A stretch of DNA of 64,000 nucleotides. Origin: Thermoanaerobaculia bacterium. Its GTDB lineage: Bacteria; Acidobacteriota; Thermoanaerobaculia; JALWYX01. Made by a program: the position numbers and the translations under genes. Position 1 is the first letter of the stretch; each line of letters starts with the position of its first letter. The stretch covers positions 13,161 to 77,160 of the forward strand of contig JALWYX010000012.1 of assembly GCA_027078415.1 (NCBI GenBank), written 5' to 3'. The notes beneath the pieces are model-generated. The model was not told the DNA's origin and made no database searches. It worked only from the letters and a program-made list of their open reading frames with translations. Of the stretch, positions 35,800-62,236 are shown one piece after another.

Positions 35800-35874
<75 letters not shown>

Positions 35875-35893
35875 GGTTGGGGTTGAGAAAGTT

Positions 35894-35979
35894 GGAGGCG
35901 TGCCCGAGTGGACAAAGGGAGCAGGCTGTAAACCTGCCGGCGTAAGCCTACGGTGGTTCGAATCCATCCGCCTCCACCA
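35894..35979 (+). tRNA. tRNA-Tyr (anticodon GTA), long variable arm
   Basis: GGAGGCG acceptor, loop CT-GTA-AA, 14-nt variable arm, TTCGAAT, CCA. Confidence 0.9.
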
Positions 35980-35982
35980 AGT

Positions 35983-36057
35983 GCGGGAGTAACTCAGTGG
36001 TAGAGTGTCAGCCTTCCAAGCTGATGGTCGCGGGTTCGAATCCCGTCTCCCGCTCCA
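35983..36057 (+). tRNA. tRNA-Gly (anticodon TCC)
   Basis: GCGGGAG acceptor, loop CT-TCC-AA, TTCGAAT, CCA. Confidence 0.9.
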
Positions 36058-36107
36058 GATGTTTTATGTTTGCGTAAGAGAGGATAGTGTGCTATACTCT
36101 CGATCAG

Positions 36108-36182
36108 GCCCACGTGGCTCAGGGGTAGAGCACTTCCTTGGTAAGGAAGGGGTCACCGGTTCGAATCCGGTCGTGGGCTCCA
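36108..36182 (+). tRNA. tRNA-Thr (anticodon GGT)
   Basis: GCCCACG acceptor, loop TT-GGT-AA, TTCGAAT, CCA. Confidence 0.9.
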
Positions 36183-36227: not shown

Positions 36228-37421
36228 ATGTCTAAAAAGAAATTTGAACGCACCAAACCGCATGTTAACATAGGTACTATAGGTCATGTAGATCATGGGA
36301 AAACCACTTTGACTGCTGCTATAACTAGGGTGCTGGCTGAAAAGGGTTTAGCTGAGTTTGTTCCTTTTGATGCTATAGACAAGGCCCCTGAAGAGAGAGA
36401 GAGGGGTATTACTATTGCAACAGCGCATGTTGAGTATGAAACTGAAAAGAGGCATTACGCTCATGTGGATTGTCCGGGTCATGCTGACTATGTTAAGAAC
36501 ATGATAACTGGTGCTGCTCAGATGGATGGAGCAATACTTGTTGTTTCGGCTGTTGATGGTCCTATGCCTCAAACAAGGGAGCACATATTGTTAGCACGTC
36601 AAGTGGATGTTCCGGCTATAGTGGTGTTTATAAATAAAGTTGATGCTGTTGATGAAGAGGATCAAGAGTTGATCGATTTAGTGGAGCTTGAAGTACGCGA
36701 TCTTTTAAACCAATACGATTTTCCAGGTGACGAGGTTCCGGTTATAAGAGGGTCTGCTCTAAAGGCTTTGGAAGATCCTTCAGGTCCCTGGGCCGAAAAT
36801 ATAATGGAGCTTATGAATGCTGTGGATGAGTATATTCCTCTTCCACCCCGTGATGTGGATAAAGATTTCCTTATGCCTATAGAGGATATTTTCTCTATTT
36901 CGGGACGAGGTACTGTTGTCACAGGCAGAGTTGAAAGAGGTAAGGTTAAAGTAGGTGACGAGGTGGAGATAGTAGGTTTGCGTCCTACAAAAAAGACTGT
37001 GGTAACAGGAATAGAGATGTTTAGAAAGATACTGGATGAGGGAGTTGCAGGAGATAATATAGGTGTTCTTCTAAGAGGTATAAGAAAAGATGAAGTTGAG
37101 AGAGGACAAGTTTTGGCCAAGCCTGGTTCTATTACTCCTCACACTAAATTTAAAGCAGAAGTGTATGTTCTTACAAAGGAAGAGGGAGGTAGGCATACTC
37201 CGTTTTTTAGTGGATATAGGCCCCAGTTTTATTTTAGGACTACTGATGTTACTGGGACAGTTAAGTTACCTGAAGGAGTAGAGATGGTGATGCCGGGAGA
37301 TAATGTTAATTTGGAGGTTGAACTTATAGCTCCTATCGCTATGGAACGTGGAGTTAGATTTGCTATTCGTGAAGGAGGAAGGACAGTAGGAGCTGGTACG
37401 GTAACTGAAGTTATTGAATAG
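36228..37421 (+). CDS. tuf: elongation factor Tu
   Basis: 397 aa; [22 protein letters not shown] motifs. Confidence 0.99.
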
Positions 37422-37496
37422 GGCAGTAGCTCAATTGGCCAGAGCACCGGTCTCCAAAACCGGCGGTTGGGGGTTCGAGTCCCTCCTGCCCTGCCA
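37420..37496 (+). tRNA. tRNA-Trp (anticodon CCA); 5' end overlaps tuf stop codon by 2 nt
   Basis: AGGGCAG/CTGCCCT acceptor, GCTC/GAGC, loop CT-CCA-AA, TTCGAGT, encoded CCA. Confidence 0.85.
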
Positions 37497-51398: not shown

Positions 51399-51474
51399 GG
51401 GTCCGTAGCTCAACGGTTAGAGCATCCGGCTCATAACCGGAGGGTTCCAGGTTCGAATCCTGGCGGGCCCACCA
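51399..51474 (+). tRNA. tRNA with CAT anticodon (elongator Met or Ile2/lysidine type)
   Basis: GGGTCCG acceptor, GCTC/GAGC, loop CT-CAT-AA, TTCGAAT, CCA; anticodon stem lacks initiator 3-GC signature. Confidence 0.8.
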
Positions 51475-51497: not shown

Positions 51498-52223
51498 ATG
51501 TATGAAAAAAGTATGGGAGAGCTGGATGTAGTGATAGAGCTGGACAATCTTTATTCTGAACTGGATAAAAAGCAGAAGTCTCTTAACGATCTTCCTTCAT
51601 GGATGCAAAGTGCTTATCAAGAGTACCTTGCGAAGAAAGAAGAGTACGAGCATATAAAGAGTAAGAAAGAATCTTTGGAATCTCAGTTACGGGAAGCAGA
51701 GCTTAGGTTGAACGAGTTGGAGGAGAGTTATGGTAATCTTAACGAGAGAGCGAGCAAAATATCTAATATGAAGCAGTATGAAGCTTATGTTCGTGAAAAA
51801 AAGAGAATAAAGGAAGAGATTGAAAAAACGAAGTCGTTGAAAAATGATATCTCTGCTGAAATTGAACTATTTAAGGAAAATTTTGCAGAGGTGGAGGCTT
51901 CATTTTTAGATGTTGAAAAAACTTATAAAAAAGAGCTCGCTAAGTGGGAAGCGAGCAAACCTGAGATAGCTAGAGAGATAGAGACTATAGAAAAGAAGAT
52001 AAACGAACTGAGGAGTTTGCTGCCACCTAATATTGTACGAAGATTGGAATTGCTACGAGAAAAGTTTGGTAGGGCCACTGCCAAAATATATTCCTCCGAG
52101 GATAACCAGTTTAGTTATTGTTCTAACTGTAACTACGTGGTAAGACCTGTTGTAATTCAAAGAATTAAGCTTGGAATTGAGCTTATAGAATGTGACAACT
52201 GTAAACGTATATTGTACCAATAG
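51498..52223 (+). CDS. COG1579-type coiled-coil protein with C-terminal C4 zinc ribbon
   Basis: 241 aa; long heptad-rich region; C-terminal CSNCN...CDNC. Confidence 0.6.
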   Translation: MYEKSMGELDVVIELDNLYSELDKKQKSLNDLPSWMQSAYQEYLAKKEEYEHIKSKKESLESQLREAELRLNELEESYGNLNERASKISNMKQYEAYVREKKRIKEEIEKTKSLKNDISAEIELFKENFAEVEASFLDVEKTYKKELAKWEASKPEIAREIETIEKKINELRSLLPPNIVRRLELLREKFGRATAKIYSSEDNQFSYCSNCNYVVRPVVIQRIKLGIELIECDNCKRILYQ

Positions 52224-57347: not shown

Positions 57348-58103
57348 TCAAGTAAGTAACAACATTACTGTAGCTAAAGCTATCCTGTATATTACGAAAG
57401 GAAGAAAAGTTCTAGTTGTTAGCCATTTGAGTAAAAGTTTTACCGTTATTGTTGCAGTGATGAATGCTGCGATAAACCCTAATAGGTAACTGTTTGTTGG
57501 AAGTATAACTTCTACGCCTTTAAAAAGGTCGTGGATGTTTTTGATTGCTACCATAATGCTTACTGGTAGAGATATCATAAAAGATATCTCAGCTGCGTCT
57601 TTACGTTTATAGCCCAGGGCTAAAGCTGCGGTTATTGTTATACCTGAACGAGACGTTCCTGGTATAAGAGCTAACGGTTGGAAAAGAGAAATTATAAGGG
57701 CATCTTTTATAGAAAACAGTTTTACAGTTTTCCTTTTACTGCTAAAATATTCGCTTATTCCCAACATTATTCCGAAAAAAAAGGTGGTAAGTATTACTAC
57801 ATCTGTATTTCTTGTTAAAGATGCTATTTCTTTTTGGAAAAGAAAACCTACTATACCGGTAGGGATGGAAGTTAATATTATTTTGGCCATTAAAGATTTT
57901 TTTAAAATTTTTTTATAGTATAGAGCTAAGATGGCAAGAAAGGTGGCAGAGTTTACTGTCATATCGAAGAGGAGCCCTTGGTCTGTGGAGGATAGTAGTT
58001 GCCCAATCAGAATAAGGTGCCCCGATGAGCTTATAGGTAAAAACTCGGTCACTCCTTGTACAACTCCTAATACTATTGGATGCAGATGTTTTTCGGATAT
58101 CAT
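57348..58103 (-). CDS. uppP: undecaprenyl-diphosphatase (BacA/UppP)
   Basis: 251 aa; conserved VTEFLPISSSGHL and PGTSRSG motifs. Confidence 0.9.
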   Translation of the reverse strand: MISEKHLHPIVLGVVQGVTEFLPISSSGHLILIGQLLSSTDQGLLFDMTVNSATFLAILALYYKKILKKSLMAKIILTSIPTGIVGFLFQKEIASLTRNTDVVILTTFFFGIMLGISEYFSSKRKTVKLFSIKDALIISLFQPLALIPGTSRSGITITAALALGYKRKDAAEISFMISLPVSIMVAIKNIHDLFKGVEVILPTNSYLLGFIAAFITATITVKLLLKWLTTRTFLPFVIYRIALATVMLLLT

Positions 58104-58193: not shown

Positions 58194-58778
58194 GTGATTA
58201 ATCTGCACAGTTTTCATACTTACAAGTTAGTAACAAACAAAGCAATTGAGTGTGTACAGGCTATTAGGTTGTTGAGTGAGCTTATAAGTGAAAATCAAGA
58301 GAATGCAGATATAAAAGGCGATTTGGAGAGTATAACAAAGTCGTGTGATCTTCTTGCCTCTTGTATAGATTCGATGAAACTTATTTTTTCCTCAGTTTTT
58401 TCCACCGACGCTAAGAGGTTGAAATTTATAGCAACCGTTATAGAAGAAAGATGGAGTGATCTATTTAAATCCAAGAATATAGAATTTAGGGTGGTGTTTA
58501 AAGATACTTCAGTAAAAGTTTGTTATGGTTTGTTATTGATGGTTGTCGATGCGGTGTTAAAGGAAAGGATTGAAATCCTTGAGGAGAAAGATATAGTATT
58601 TGTTACCCTTGAGACAGGTGATGGTATGAAGGTTAGTATAGTAGACACCGGTAAAGAGGATATAGATAGTGGTACTTTTGAAAATCTTAGGCTGGTTATA
58701 GAATATTTCGGGGGAGAAGTGTATAAAAAGCAGAGCGATGAAGGTTTCGAGATTATTTTTAGTTTTAGTTGCAAATAG
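58194..58778 (+). CDS. standalone degenerate GHKL (histidine-kinase-like ATPase, HATPase_c) domain protein
   Basis: 194 aa; C-terminal pattern VDAVLKE ... VSIVDTG ... FENLRLVIEYFGGEV ... GFEIIFSF resembles HK catalytic domain without DHp domain. Confidence 0.45.
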   Translation: MINLHSFHTYKLVTNKAIECVQAIRLLSELISENQENADIKGDLESITKSCDLLASCIDSMKLIFSSVFSTDAKRLKFIATVIEERWSDLFKSKNIEFRVVFKDTSVKVCYGLLLMVVDAVLKERIEILEEKDIVFVTLETGDGMKVSIVDTGKEDIDSGTFENLRLVIEYFGGEVYKKQSDEGFEIIFSFSCK

Positions 58779-59548
58779 GGAGGGTAGAAGACGTGGATAA
58801 AATAGAAGGAGATTTCCTTATTTTTGAAGAGGATGAGTTGCTATCTCAAATTTATGCCAGAGTTATAAGAAACGTTGTAGAGGGTGAGGTTGTTGTTGTA
58901 ACGAATCTGGATAATTTTAAGAAGTTCTCTTCTGAAGGAGTTTTCACAGGTGTGGTAATGGGGTTTCCCTTTCACGCTTATGAGATAGAAAAGAGTGTGC
59001 AAAATTTCTTGGATAAGAACATGTTTAGTAGAATTATGGTAGTAGAAAGTGAAAGTCTGTTATTTAATAGGTTTATAAGCTGGTTACGAGAGAATTATTC
59101 CGATAGATTTGAAGTTTTAACACGCCCTTTTACCAAAGAAGCTTTTGTTAGGAAGTTGAAATCCCTTGCTGAACAGAAGGTGTCTTGGGATTTGGATAGT
59201 GGTAATGAGGGGGATGATACTAGAGAATTTGCAGAGTCTGGTGAATTTATAATAGGAGTGCCTGAGTATCTGCAGCTTGCTTCTATGATGAGGCATTCTT
59301 TTATTTTGAAAGTCCAGATGAAGGATGGCAGGAAAGGCAAGATATATGTAGTAAATGGAGAAGTATGGGATGCGGAGATAGAGGGTAGAGATAACCCTCA
59401 CGACGCTCTTAGGGTGATGTTGTTTGGAGATGTTAAATCTACTTTTACTAAAGTTCTCAAAGATTTCCCTGAGCGTAAGATAATGGAAGATACAAATTCT
59501 ATTATGTTAAATTTAGCTAAAGATTACGATGAAAAGCAAATGTTATAG
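58769..59548 (+). CDS. pseudo-receiver (REC-like, phosphoacceptor Asp replaced) + C-terminal DUF4388/PATAN domain protein
   Basis: 259 aa; REC-like periodicity ending in LTRPFTKEAFVRKLKSL; C-terminal FIIGVPEYLQLASMMRHSFILKV...KIYVVNGEV DUF4388-like. Confidence 0.5.
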   Translation: MQIGRVEDVDKIEGDFLIFEEDELLSQIYARVIRNVVEGEVVVVTNLDNFKKFSSEGVFTGVVMGFPFHAYEIEKSVQNFLDKNMFSRIMVVESESLLFNRFISWLRENYSDRFEVLTRPFTKEAFVRKLKSLAEQKVSWDLDSGNEGDDTREFAESGEFIIGVPEYLQLASMMRHSFILKVQMKDGRKGKIYVVNGEVWDAEIEGRDNPHDALRVMLFGDVKSTFTKVLKDFPERKIMEDTNSIMLNLAKDYDEKQML

Positions 59549-59580
59549 ATAAAAAGGCAAAAAAAGTTGAGGTCAGATAA

Positions 59581-60405
59581 ATGGGAGGATATTCTATTGC
59601 TATTTCATCTTTAAAAGGTGGAGTTGGTAAAACTACCTTAGCTCTTAATTTGGGCTATGCGTTGGCTAAGCGAGGATGGAGAACGGTTGTTGTAGACGCT
59701 GATCCTCAAGGAGGTATGACGTACGCGTTAGCTGGCAAGGGGACCACTTCTGGTGGGTTGGTTTCTGTTCCTGCAGATCTGGATGAATCGGAGGTTGAAA
59801 AGGTTATTGTGAGATCCAAAAATAAAAATTTTTCTATAATACCCTTTGGCTATGCAAGCGTTGAAGAGGTAGAGAAGTGGAGTGATACAGTAAAAGATGG
59901 AGAATTTTTCTCTAAGTTATTTTCTTACTTAAGCGGTGTTTTTGACATTGTTATGGTCGATACACCACCCGGTATAAGTGGTTCTACTGTAGGAGTTCTC
60001 AAGGCGGTTGATTATGTTATATCTCCTTTGCAGGCAGAGCCTATGGCTGCTAGAAGTGTTTCTAAGATGTTGGAAAGTATTGTAGAACTGCGGAAAAAAG
60101 GTTCTAAAGCTAGGTTATTGGCGTTTGTTATAAATATGTTGGCTGCTAGGGATAAAAACTCTTTAGAGGTAGCACTCTCTGCATGGAAAGCTTTGCCTCC
60201 TGAAGTTGTTTTAGAAGTTACGATCCCCAAACACCCTATCTTTCTAGAAGCTAGTAGGCACGGTTTGCCTGTAGCTCTTATAGGAAGCAAAGAGAAGAGT
60301 TCTATGGTGGGAGTGATTTTTGATCAATTGGCTGCTATAGTAGAGGAAAGAGTAGGTTTGGTGGAGGTTTATGAGCATGATAGAACAGTCTCTCTTTTTG
60401 ATTGA
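59581..60405 (+). CDS. ParA/MinD-family P-loop ATPase (deviant Walker A)
   Basis: 274 aa; SSLKGGVGKTT deviant Walker A, DADPQG, Walker B VDTPPG. Confidence 0.8.
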   Translation: MGGYSIAISSLKGGVGKTTLALNLGYALAKRGWRTVVVDADPQGGMTYALAGKGTTSGGLVSVPADLDESEVEKVIVRSKNKNFSIIPFGYASVEEVEKWSDTVKDGEFFSKLFSYLSGVFDIVMVDTPPGISGSTVGVLKAVDYVISPLQAEPMAARSVSKMLESIVELRKKGSKARLLAFVINMLAARDKNSLEVALSAWKALPPEVVLEVTIPKHPIFLEASRHGLPVALIGSKEKSSMVGVIFDQLAAIVEERVGLVEVYEHDRTVSLFD

Positions 60406-60889
60406 AAACAGTAAACTTCGTGATTTGTGCTCCCTTGCTACAAGAGAAGAGATAGGATATGTGACAGAGAGAGTAAGAGAAACTGTAAAAGTGGAAGAGG
60501 AGAAACCTAAGAAAGAAGTAATACCCCTTTTGGAAATGAAAGGGTTATCTATAAGAAAAAAGCTTTCTTCTTTTCTAGATTGGGCAAGTTCTTTTATACA
60601 AGCAGATGAGATGCTTTTTGTGGACGATGAGGGTCTAATATTACACCGTGTAGGAGAAGAAAAAATCGGCTATTCTGCTATCTCTATGGTTATCAAATAT
60701 ATTTGTAAGATAATAGCAACAAAAGAATGTCTGTTTGAGTACCTTTCTATAAAACTGGGGGATAATGCTATCTACCTGTTTCCGGCAAAACTTCAGGGGG
60801 TGGATATTACCTTAGGTATATATGCTAGGGAGATTGAAGGTTATAAGATAGAAGCTGTTGTTAAAAATATAGGAAAATTGGACCAATAG
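60371..60889 (+). CDS. Roadblock/LC7 (MglB-like) domain protein
   Basis: 172 aa; LFVDDEGLIL ... AIYLFPAKLQGVDITLGIYA pattern matching roadblock fold; overlaps ParA 3' end. Confidence 0.55.
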   Translation: MSMIEQSLFLIENSKLRDLCSLATREEIGYVTERVRETVKVEEEKPKKEVIPLLEMKGLSIRKKLSSFLDWASSFIQADEMLFVDDEGLILHRVGEEKIGYSAISMVIKYICKIIATKECLFEYLSIKLGDNAIYLFPAKLQGVDITLGIYAREIEGYKIEAVVKNIGKLDQ

Positions 60890-60897
60890 GGAGTCTT

Positions 60898-61560
60898 ATG
60901 TCTAAAAGGGAGATTATTAACAAGTTGGTTGAGGCGGAGGAGATTTGGGGAGTAATTGTTGTTTGTAACGATAAAGTCTGCTTTGAGGAATGGTTTGAAG
61001 AGGGAAAAGTTCCAGCTGAATTTGTAAGTTTCTTTTTGGATATTGCTTCTGTTTTCGTAACCAAGTTTGAAGCTATGGGTATAGAAGTGGATTTAGAGAG
61101 TTACTCCGTGATAAGATTTGCTAACTTTATGCTATTTAGCGCTGTATTTGAGAACAGTATTATCGTTTTCTTTTGTGCACCCGAAGCTAGCGTTGGGCTT
61201 GTTAAAAAGTATTATAAAGAAGTTAGAGAGAAGCTTTTGAATACCGCGCTTGCTGAGTATAAGTCAAAGAAAAATGAGGAAGAGCTTATAAAAGAAGAAG
61301 TAGAAGAAGTAAAGGAAAGCTATATCGAAATAGATGATATAGAAGAAAAGAATGGAAATAAAATAAGTGCTAATGTTCTTGATGAGATAGAGAAAAAACT
61401 TTCATATTTGGAAGAGAAATACGGCGATCGAAATCTTATACTTCTTAGATTGGCTGTAAGAAGTGGGATACCACGGAAAAAACTGAACGATTTGAGAACC
61501 TTGTCGGAAGAGGAACTTTTCCAGTTGGGAAGTGCAATAGATAGCGTATATAAAATATAG
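60898..61560 (+). CDS. Roadblock/LC7 (MglB-like) domain protein with acidic coiled-coil C-terminal tail
   Basis: 220 aa; GVIVVCNDKVCFE ... SIIVFFCAPEASVGLV roadblock-like; EEELIKEEVEEVKE acidic tail. Confidence 0.5.
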   Translation: MSKREIINKLVEAEEIWGVIVVCNDKVCFEEWFEEGKVPAEFVSFFLDIASVFVTKFEAMGIEVDLESYSVIRFANFMLFSAVFENSIIVFFCAPEASVGLVKKYYKEVREKLLNTALAEYKSKKNEEELIKEEVEEVKESYIEIDDIEEKNGNKISANVLDEIEKKLSYLEEKYGDRNLILLRLAVRSGIPRKKLNDLRTLSEEELFQLGSAIDSVYKI

Positions 61561-61564
61561 TTTA

Positions 61565-62236
61565 ATGCCCTATTTTTTCCTCTTTGATGTTGATGGTACG
61601 CTGATTAGGTGTGGTGTGCAAGTAAAGCATATTTATGAGGAAGCTCTTCGTGAGATAACAGGGCTTAAAGTTCCAGAAGGCTACGATTTTAGCGGGAAAA
61701 CCGACTCGCAGATAACCTCTGAAATATTATCGTTGGGAGAGGTAGAAGAAGACAAAATAGAGTCTCTTATACCAGTTATAAAAAATCGTTATCTACAACT
61801 TTTAGATATAAAATTGGATCGTTCTAGTGTAGAGGTTTTGCCTGGAGTTTATTCTCTTCTTGATAAGTTAACAATCTTTGATCAAGTAAATGTAGGACTT
61901 CTTACAGGAAATTGGAAAAGAGGGGCTTATATAAAGCTTTCTCCTTTCGGTTTGGATAGTTACTTCCGGTGGGGGTTTTTCGGTGAGGATGGATATCTGC
62001 GTAAGCATCTAGTGCAGAAAGCTGTTAAATATGTTTCTTCGCAAGGAGGAAAAGTTGAAGATATAGTTATTGTGGGTGATAGTTGGCGAGATGTGGAGGC
62101 TGCTAAGGCTTACGGTATTAAAGCTGTTGGAGTAACAACTGGCTGGACTAGTGCAGATACTTTATTGACTTTTGGAGCGGACGTAGTTGTTGAGTCGTTG
62201 GAAGATAAACGAGTTTTAGATTTTCTTATAAGATGA
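61565..62236 (+). CDS. HAD-superfamily hydrolase (phosphoglycolate phosphatase-like)
   Basis: 223 aa; motif I FLFDVDGTL, motif IV GDSWRDVEAA. Confidence 0.65.
   Translation: MPYFFLFDVDGTLIRCGVQVKHIYEEALREITGLKVPEGYDFSGKTDSQITSEILSLGEVEEDKIESLIPVIKNRYLQLLDIKLDRSSVEVLPGVYSLLDKLTIFDQVNVGLLTGNWKRGAYIKLSPFGLDSYFRWGFFGEDGYLRKHLVQKAVKYVSSQGGKVEDIVIVGDSWRDVEAAKAYGIKAVGVTTGWTSADTLLTFGADVVVESLEDKRVLDFLIR

Follow-up and report, generated by a model that had tools for sequence, protein, structure and literature searches.

A ParA/MinD-type ATPase encoded with two putative Roadblock-superfamily proteins in an apparently undescribed, widespread bacterial operon

Introduction

Which nucleotide switch do Roadblock-like proteins serve when the only nucleoside triphosphatase (NTPase) gene beside theirs encodes a ParA-type ATPase? 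This question is raised by five co-directional open reading frames (ORFs), p1 to p5, which are packed closely or overlap at positions 58194-61560 of a 64,000-nucleotide stretch of contig JALWYX010000012.1 from a Thermoanaerobaculia bacterium (assembly GCA_027078415.1); the whole stretch is referred to below as the window. In the prevailing view, Roadblock/LC7 domains provide platforms for small GTPases, with bacterial MglB and human Ragulator as examples, and ParA/MinD ATPases work with partners such as ParB, MinE, PomXY, and McdB. A preliminary description of the block, made from the window alone, had proposed a module with an unusual NTPase partner. The comparison with related loci reported here supports this proposal, in that the gene order is conserved and no MglA gene adjoins it, with the amendment that the conserved unit differs from the five genes first noticed. 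The block represents an apparently undescribed, widespread bacterial operon. No description of the cassette was found in the literature, of which our coverage was incomplete and in which an earlier comparative-genomics mention is possible.

Results

The ParA gene and two downstream genes form a conserved cassette

The product of p3 (59581-60405, + strand, 274 aa) is the sole NTPase of the module and was confirmed as the ParA/MinD ATPase with a deviant Walker A motif that the preliminary description had recognized. It scored 104.1 bits against Pfam AAA_31 (cutoff 27), 70.9 bits against CbiA (25.4), and 47.4 bits against ParA (27.1), and its deviant Walker A SLKGGVGKTT, DADPQG, and DTPPG motifs are intact; these motifs are also kept in 41 family members. 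Its scores lie under the NCBIfam equivalog cutoffs for ParA_partition (90.5 vs 180), BcsQ (74.4 vs 157.85), and MinD (48.5 vs 212.9), and no ParB gene adjoins it. The nearest solved structures are ParA/Soj, McdA, and MinD. Among 8000 candidates scored there were 198 full-length homologues at E ≤ 1e-20, those listed being 35-45% identical to p3, and some of the homologues are labelled by NCBI as Acidobacteriota, Thermoanaerobaculia, Myxococcota, Polyangiaceae, or Prosthecobacter.

Twelve loci of p3 homologues were inspected. In 11 of them the ParA gene is followed by a gene for a protein of 113-237 aa and then by a gene for a protein of about 190 aa. We term these two families famA, which includes p4, and famB, which includes p5. 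Proteins of about 420 aa and 100-148 aa are encoded after famB in 10 of the 12 loci. The Prosthecobacter locus L012 (7001-8663) is partial: after ParA it encodes a famA-like protein of 290 aa whose Pro-rich linker is very long, and neither famB, nor the 420-aa protein with its V4R-like halves, nor the small protein was found near this ParA gene.

A second set of loci, independent of the ParA anchoring, was obtained by scanning metagenome contigs with a famB alignment. This yielded 75 loci, which were annotated with family hidden Markov models (HMMs), and a locus was counted for a given neighbor only if it had enough flanking sequence. A famA gene lies directly upstream of famB in 55 of 58 loci, and ParA lies upstream on the same strand in 32 of 33, the one exception being divergent but adjacent. 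Downstream of famB, the double-V4R protein of about 420 aa is encoded in 50 of 51 loci and the protein of about 100 aa in 33 of 34. An adaptor of the PATAN, TPR, or receiver type is encoded upstream of ParA in 23 of 25 loci. These counts place the arrangement well beyond chance, and the composition and conservation of the cassette are solid. The conserved unit is ParA with two Roadblock-like proteins, usually followed by the double-V4R and the approximately 100-aa proteins, with a variable input made of PATAN, TPR, receiver, or kinase components. The records that bear it come from Acidobacteriota (including Thermoanaerobaculia), Myxococcota/Polyangiaceae, and many soil and sediment metagenomes, with a partial cassette in Prosthecobacter. 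The preliminary description had made the conservation of gene order in other genomes a point to be checked, and the order was found conserved well outside this genome and across phyla.

The input side is variable. Among ten upstream adaptors searched against Pfam, one has a receiver (REC) domain with DUF4388 (the PATAN domain), three have DUF4388 alone (44.7, 40.2, and 22.6 bits), four have TPR repeats, one is a Ser/Thr kinase, and one gave no match. The order seen in the window (histidine kinase, receiver-PATAN protein, ParA, famA, famB) recurs in catalytically intact form in two loci. One of them, L011 (Thermoanaerobaculia), encodes in turn a HisKA+HATPase_c kinase, a Response_reg+DUF4388+TPR protein, ParA, famA, and famB, and in the other, L021, a PAS-HisKA-HATPase_c kinase lies ahead of the adaptor. 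Only a minority of these cassettes include a kinase.

Neither the V4R protein nor the approximately 100-aa protein is encoded in the window, which is therefore a reduced, lineage-specific variant of the cassette; its kinase-like and receiver-position parts also appear degenerate (see below). Two further loci, L010 (Myxococcota) and L079, likewise keep ParA-famA-famB without the V4R or the small protein.

The accessory proteins show features of their own. The protein of about 420 aa consists of two V4R-like halves with the motif YVYHCHHFNLFHDQ and Cys-containing C-terminal motifs, and it reached 28.3 and 22.6 bits against Pfam V4R (cutoff 31); it is encoded at 7970-9232 in L007, 8887-10149 in L011, 8960-10216 in L013, and 9170-10450 in L014, as well as in 58 metagenome loci. 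The 100-148-aa protein encoded after it (L007 9229-9588, L009 9371-9757, L011 10157-10459, L014 10464-10781) has N-terminal Cys residues and the motif GHE(I/L)AWV..TGR(V/I)Q(I/L)RV, and it has no Pfam or PADLOC match. Against the PADLOC models of anti-phage defence systems, ParA gave short P-loop-level matches (21.8 and 14.4 bits) and the other eight proteins tested gave none; the cassette thus fits no defence system in that collection. Ser/Thr protein kinase genes recur beside the cassette (L007 1-1368, L011 10579-12645, L012 8714-11308, L068 1622-3178, L069 473-2029), and in L068 and L069 the kinase gene takes the place of the adaptor directly upstream of ParA.

No small GTPase is encoded beside the cassette

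The preliminary description had remarked that the cluster contains no Ras-like GTPase, and both the window and the related loci agree with this. No small GTPase was found in the 64-kb window, in which EF-Tu is the sole classical P-loop GTPase. The annotated ParA-anchored loci gave no Ras, Arf, or MglA-type Pfam matches. The 75 famB-anchored loci contain 553 unclassified ORFs of 120 aa or more; a P-loop occurs in five of these, and none is laid out like a small GTPase, the single N-terminal GLPNVGKS motif belonging to a 419-aa protein. Since about 85 related loci are without an adjacent MglA-like GTPase, the block is not an MglAB locus from which one gene is missing.

The ParA and famA genes overlap

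The 3' end of p3 and the 5' end of p4 (60371-60889, + strand, 172 aa) share 35 nt at 60371-60405 (+). All loci checked have such an overlap between the ParA and famA genes, 20-38 nt long: the window, L007 (6791-6813), L009 (6797-6828), L011 (7758-7783), L012 (7791-7810), L013 (7764-7798), L014 (7794-7822), and L090 (8764-8801). The TGA stop codon of ParA lies inside the famA codons for (W/L)-I-E of the famA N-terminal motif, and both frames of the overlap encode conserved peptides, ...(S/P)L(F/L)D* at the end of ParA and SL(F/S)WI(E/D) at the start of famA. The conservation of the overlap and of both of its frames suggests coupled translation and a dual coding constraint. A programmed frameshift joining ParA and famA was considered and dismissed, the relatives having no slippery sequence in the overlap.

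The famA and famB families are putative members of the Roadblock superfamily

The preliminary description had read p4 and p5 as two Roadblock/LC7 proteins. Direct profiles of the two proteins did not bear this out; the reading gained its support at the level of their families. Neither p4 nor p5 has a Pfam or NCBIfam match, as a whole or as isolated domains (Robl_LC7, LAMTOR, and MglB included), word-indexed searches of 5.8 billion proteins returned for each only itself, and single-sequence PDB searches with p1, p2, p4, and p5 gave noise. The famA and famB families were reached through synteny. Family HMMs were built without the window sequences (leave-one-out) and scored on the 249 ORFs of the window. 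Under these conditions, p4 reached 22.5 bits against famA (E 1.2e-6) and p5 reached 17.6 bits against famB (E 3.2e-5), 12.8 bits of which come from its C-terminal domain; no other window ORF scored over 3.4 bits against either HMM. Taken as families, famA and famB have good support from profiles as candidate members of the Roadblock superfamily, and p4 and p5 would be assigned to it through their membership in them.

The globular domain of p4 (residues 57-172; 60539-60886, + strand) is predicted to be a divergent, LAMTOR5-like domain of the Roadblock superfamily. It shares the core of famA, LFVDDEGLIL in p4 corresponding to FVADxEGLxL in the family. When 33 non-redundant famA members were searched against Pfam, LAMTOR5 was matched by 10 (best E 3.8e-5), Robl_LC7 by two, and MAPKK1_Int by one. 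The famA profile matched the Robl_LC7 structure 7f8f at E 0.14 and LAMTOR5 chains at E of about 1 (range 0.14-1.4); two earlier PDB profile searches with famA were uninformative, one being swamped by the Pro/Ala-rich linker and the other too shallow. The single-sequence AlphaFold2 (AF2) model of p4 is unreliable (predicted local distance difference test, pLDDT, 37), and its order of secondary-structure elements fits the Roadblock alpha-beta-beta-alpha-beta-beta-beta arrangement. With this model, the top nine Foldseek matches are Roadblock-fold chains, none of them significant (E 0.17-0.55).

Ahead of the globular domain, p4 carries the N-terminal conserved peptide QSLFLIENSKLRDLCS (60386-60433, + strand), followed by a charged linker. 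The N-terminal motif of famA is SL(F/S)WI(D/E)...LL, and its relaxed form, [WL]-[IVTP..]-[DE]-x3-4-hydrophobic-x2-[LMW]-hydrophobic, is found right at the N-terminus in 49 of 53 famA proteins, among them p4. The linker between motif and globular domain varies in length and is Pro/Ala-rich in the relatives of p4.

The famB proteins are closer to MglB. The best PDB matches of the famB profile were the MglB structures 6h5b, 6izw, and 6hjm (E 0.02-0.03), followed by Robl_LC7 7f8m (0.06, with the whole domain aligned), the dynein light chain roadblock (0.22), and Thermus MglB (0.7-0.9). Chains of MglB, Robl_LC7, or dynein roadblock account for eight of the 13 PDB matches and for all of the top five; the matches are individually weak and mutually consistent. 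The famB member of L010, which scored 58.7 bits against the leave-one-out famB HMM, matches Pfam Robl_LC7 at 1.2e-6 / 4e-7, and three further famB members match SLM4.

In p5 (60898-61560, + strand, 220 aa), the presumed Roadblock/LC7 domain occupies residues 1-115 (60898-61242, +). It is followed by an acidic stretch at residues ~116-162 (61243-61383, +), in which 15 of 47 residues are Asp or Glu; this stretch is specific to the window lineage and appears as an insert when p5 is aligned with the seven other famB sequences. The preliminary description had taken it for an acidic tail, which has to be corrected, since a conserved helical domain of about 58 aa comes after it (61384-61557, +). This C-terminal domain, LILLRLAVRSGIP..., is the hallmark of famB. 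It aligns with YAPDPHAVLLRVSLRTG... of the relatives (LLRLAVRSGIP in p5 vs LLRVSLRTG.P) and has no Pfam or PDB sequence match.

The kinase-like and receiver-position proteins of the window appear degenerate

The first gene of the block, p1 (58194-58778, + strand, 194 aa), encodes a sequence orphan. It has no Pfam match, as a whole or in isolated segments, its NCBIfam kinase matches are weak (E 0.03-0.07), and an exhaustive phmmer search of 1.84 billion representatives found only p1 itself. Its AF2 model, of modest confidence (pLDDT 54), has helices at residues 4-36 and 43-68 that form a long hairpin, followed by an alpha/beta domain. All of the top 50 Foldseek matches of this model are structures of the dimerization and histidine phosphotransfer (DHp) and catalytic and ATP-binding (CA) domains of histidine kinases (E ~1e-6, probability 1.0), SrrB, CusS, DivL, HK853, and DesK among them, and CA-only targets superpose on it at a root-mean-square deviation of 3.5-3.8 Å. 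Bona fide HisKA+HATPase_c kinases hold the position of p1 in L011 and L021. Together, model and position support p1 as a sensor-less, soluble histidine-kinase-like protein made of a DHp hairpin and a short CA/GHKL-like domain. In a pairwise alignment with the L011 kinase (25% identity, read by eye), the N-box Asn is replaced, the G1 box has the sequence DTGKE, a G2 box (GxGLGL) is missing, and the ATP lid is shorter by about 15 residues; p1 does not have the catalytic N, G1, F, and G2 boxes and ATP lid as a set, which suggests that it is catalytically degenerate. The earlier reading of p1 as a degenerate GHKL kinase-like protein is therefore supported by the fold matches and by the kinases at the same position.

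The second gene, p2 (58769-59548, + strand, 259 aa), ends in a PATAN domain (residues 162-256; 59252-59536, +), as had been proposed. This domain lies just over the Pfam cutoff (PF14332, 26.2 bits, cutoff 25, E 8.6e-6), it is clear in the orthologous adaptors that scored 44.7 and 40.2 bits (a third ortholog scored 24.4 bits), and it shares 36% identity with the corresponding region of the REC-PATAN-TPR protein in L011 (phmmer 2.7e-13). The N-terminal half (residues 1-161; 58769-59251, +) takes the place of the receiver domain in the orthologous REC-PATAN proteins. The receivers of L011 and L021 score 59.5 and 68.7 bits against Response_reg; in p2, residues 1-150 were matched by neither Pfam, NCBIfam, nor a small REC HMM. 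When p2 is aligned with these receivers, VVMGFPFH stands against VLDIHLPG/ILDINLPG, with Gly at the position of the phospho-acceptor Asp, and the conserved Thr and Lys are replaced too. Judged by this alignment, the N-terminal half is plausibly a pseudo-receiver. Of the domains proposed in the preliminary description, direct Pfam and HMM searches thus recovered ParA and PATAN and left p1, p4, p5, and the N-terminal half of p2 unmatched.

Genomic setting of the block

The coordinates and junctions agree with the earlier account of five co-directional, tightly packed genes that precede genes of the HAD, lgt, and thiD types. The junctions p1/p2, p2/p3, p3/p4, and p4/p5 measure -10 (or +14), +32, -35, and +8 nt. 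For p2 there are two candidate starts, a TTG at 58769, which gives the 10-nt overlap with p1, and the ATG at 58793, which the gene callers in two assemblies chose and which gives 251 aa. The start codon of p1 is GTG, preceded by a strong ribosome-binding site of the GGAGG type. A scan for promoters and terminators gave counts not above those of shuffled sequence and no terminator of note inside the cluster.

The HAD, lgt (Lgt), and thiD-type genes begin 4 nt downstream of p5, and a BacA/UppP gene (57348-58103, - strand) is divergently oriented upstream of p1. A divergent BacA/UppP gene also lies upstream of the module in L014 (5959-6777, -), and a HAD-type hydrolase gene abuts the module downstream in the window (61565-62236, +) and upstream in L010 (5195-5974). 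These shared neighbors may be a coincidence or remnant synteny. Between positions 52000 and 64000 of the window, GC content is about 33-41%, GC skew is positive (0.08-0.53) in every 500-nt bin, and every gene except BacA is on the + strand. In an Rfam scan of the window, tRNAs alone reached threshold; their genes form two clusters of four (13369-13686, -, and 35800-36179, +) and two singles (37420-37493 and 51399-51471), and the + strand cluster sits ahead of a region with tuf, ribosomal-protein, and rpoB/rpoC genes.

The same five-gene block is present on two independent public assemblies. All eight window proteins checked, DNA polymerase I included, are singleton clusters at 90% identity, and the window lineage is therefore poorly sampled. 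The ParA peptides are carried by no GTDB species representative; that scan returned unrelated ParA proteins at 23-30% identity (L003-L006), which were left out of the comparison.

Discussion

The explanation that best covers the whole, on which our own judgement is evenly divided, is that the block is a reduced copy of a widespread operon with a core of ParA, famA, and famB, in which ParA is the switch. By analogy, the cassette would be best read as a ParA-centred counterpart of the MglA-MglB, conservon, and Rag-Ragulator modules. We infer the following mechanism. ParA would serve as the nucleotide switch of the module, in the place that a Ras-like GTPase holds in those systems. The famA and famB proteins would pair as a Roadblock heterodimer and bind in this form to the ParA dimer in its ATP-bound state, and famA would touch ParA through its tethered N-terminal peptide and so stimulate or gate ATP hydrolysis, for which ParB, MinE, and PomX offer the analogy. 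The PATAN(/TPR) adaptor would tie the switch to a signal input. In L011 and L021 a genuine kinase would provide this input by passing phosphate to a genuine receiver. In the window, the catalytic residues of p1 and of the receiver-position half of p2 appear to be lost, and the two would therefore be phosphorylation-independent scaffolds. As output, the complex or some cargo would be placed or polarized within the cell, a function that we infer from the families involved. The narrower proposal, that a heterodimer of dissimilar Roadblock proteins is a dedicated regulator (activator or hydrolysis gate) of a ParA/MinD ATPase, mostly together with the double-V4R protein in a Ragulator- or TRAPP-like platform, is put forward tentatively, at somewhat less than even confidence.

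Several observations weigh against regulation of ParA by a Roadblock pair. A direct Roadblock match is lacking in p4 and p5 themselves, and the N-terminal domain of p5 matches the famB HMM weakly (2.7 bits). The top PDB matches of famA are engineered ribosomal protein S6 chains (E 0.08-0.1), slightly ahead of the Roadblock chains. Comparison of famA with famB by hhalign was not significant (probability <1%), with shallow and with deeper alignments; the two families may still share a fold, because MglB and MglC, two different Roadblock paralogues, have <9% identity (PMC7949163). The famA N-terminal peptide is hydrophobic and acidic, in contrast to the basic peptides of known ParA activators, and its conservation could come partly from the constraint of the overlapping ParA C-terminus. 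Finally, a GTPase partner encoded elsewhere in these genomes is possible.

This last point leads to a different account, in which the two Roadblock proteins regulate an MglA-like GTPase encoded elsewhere and ParA positions the complex or is merely co-transcribed. The Roadblock/MglB proteins characterized so far act on small GTPases (PMC4316618, PMC3199381), and our inspection was confined to the 64-kb window and to 20 kb or less per related locus, both of which speak for such a partner in trans; because no GTPase gene lies beside the cassette in about 85 loci and the conserved gene overlap links ParA to famA, we consider this account improbable. A partner for ParA is retained, in another role, if ParA positions cargo in the conventional way with famA/famB as the adaptor, comparable to ParB or McdB; the Roadblock folds would then be no more than a dimerization scaffold for a V4R ligand-sensing complex and would exert no control over the nucleotide cycle. 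Such systems usually have a small adaptor gene directly downstream of the ParA/MinD gene, the N-terminal peptide and linker of famA resemble the architecture of such adaptors, and the V4R and approximately 100-aa proteins are nearly always co-encoded. However, the window, L010, and L079 lack these two proteins, which are therefore not an obligatory cargo, and the known adaptors stimulate the ParA ATPase too, so that this account overlaps with the regulation of ParA by famA and famB proposed here. As a separate explanation we regard it as rather unlikely, though it deserves more weight than a GTPase in trans. Accidental juxtaposition of an orphan or chromosomal Soj-type ParA with unrelated small hypothetical genes would suit the orphan status of p1, p4, and p5, which have no direct domain matches, but it can hardly be credited when the gene order is kept across phyla together with a conserved gene overlap, the neighborhood counts exclude chance, and ParA itself falls under the NCBIfam cutoff for partition proteins and has no adjacent ParB gene.

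If regulation of ParA by the Roadblock pair holds true, the Roadblock regulatory principle would extend from TRAFAC GTPases to SIMIBI ATPases, and the cassette would define a class of spatial or signalling switches that is new and widespread in bacteria, together with a new family of ParA/MinD positioning systems. It would also supply a concrete partner for some of the orphan MglB homologues discussed below. The co-occurrence in bacteria of Roadblock-like proteins with V4R (TRAPPC3-related) proteins bears on the assembly of eukaryotic GTPase-regulator complexes. Genetic tests look feasible, because the cassette is common in soil Acidobacteriota and present in Myxococcota.

Comparison with known systems

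The known ParA partners ParB, MinE, and PomX activate ParA through short N-terminal peptides. The cassette resembles the ParABS, MinDE, PomXYZ, and McdAB systems in having a deviant-Walker-A ATPase and a partner gene directly downstream, and famA as the partner likewise begins with a short conserved peptide tethered by a flexible linker. It differs in that its putative partners are Roadblock-fold proteins, for which we found no report in any ParA/MinD system in a literature coverage that was incomplete, in that the famA peptide is not basic, and in that p3 stays under the ParA_partition, MinD, and BcsQ cutoffs.

With the MglA-MglB(-MglC/RomR) systems of Myxococcus and Thermus, the cassette shares the placement of Roadblock-like genes beside the NTPase that they presumably serve, and in the Mgl systems, too, two different Roadblock paralogues (MglB and MglC) may be involved. 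Its NTPase is a dimerizing ParA/MinD ATPase of the SIMIBI class, whereas MglA is a Ras-like GTPase of the TRAFAC class; no MglA is encoded in the cassette loci examined, famA appears nearer to LAMTOR5 than to MglB, and famB has an additional conserved C-terminal domain. Wuichet and Sogaard-Andersen (2014) listed 328 MglB homologues uncoupled from MglA, none of them characterized, and did not mention ParA (PMC4316618). Receiver-domain and PATAN proteins are known associates of Mgl systems, and PATAN-MglB neighborhoods have been described (PMC4316618). Since a PATAN domain has in addition been reported to contact the motor ATPase of type IV pili (bioRxiv 10.1101/2021.06.11.447907), an ATPase-directed role for the adaptor of the cassette would be reasonable. 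The PatA-type PATAN regulators of cyanobacteria, among them PixG and PilG, also combine PATAN with a receiver(-like) domain; the order is reversed in the window, L011, and L021, where the receiver or its equivalent is N-terminal and PATAN is C-terminal, and the relatives often add a TPR tail.

In the actinobacterial conservons (G-protein systems, CvnA-D), one operon encodes a histidine-kinase(-like) protein and a Roadblock/MglB protein together with a small, functionally uncharacterized protein and a single NTPase that presumably provides the output (PMC13343842, PMC13621833), and the cassette with a kinase(-like) protein has a corresponding set. The conservon NTPase is, however, a small Ras-like GTPase, and conservons have no ParA, PATAN, or V4R component; p1 would be a soluble, degenerate DHp-CA protein of 194 aa, in contrast to the membrane sensor kinase CvnA. 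The likeness to Rag-Ragulator consists in a dissimilar pair of putative Roadblock proteins as a platform for an NTPase, with famA members matching the LAMTOR5 and MAPKK1_Int profiles, and the likeness to TRAPP consists in the V4R protein of most cassettes, the V4R fold being related to TRAPPC3/Bet3 (PMC2253512, PMC10933270). In both comparisons the resemblance lies at the level of distant profiles and folds only, and the cassette differs in being bacterial and in having a ParA ATPase in place of the Rag or Rab GTPases.

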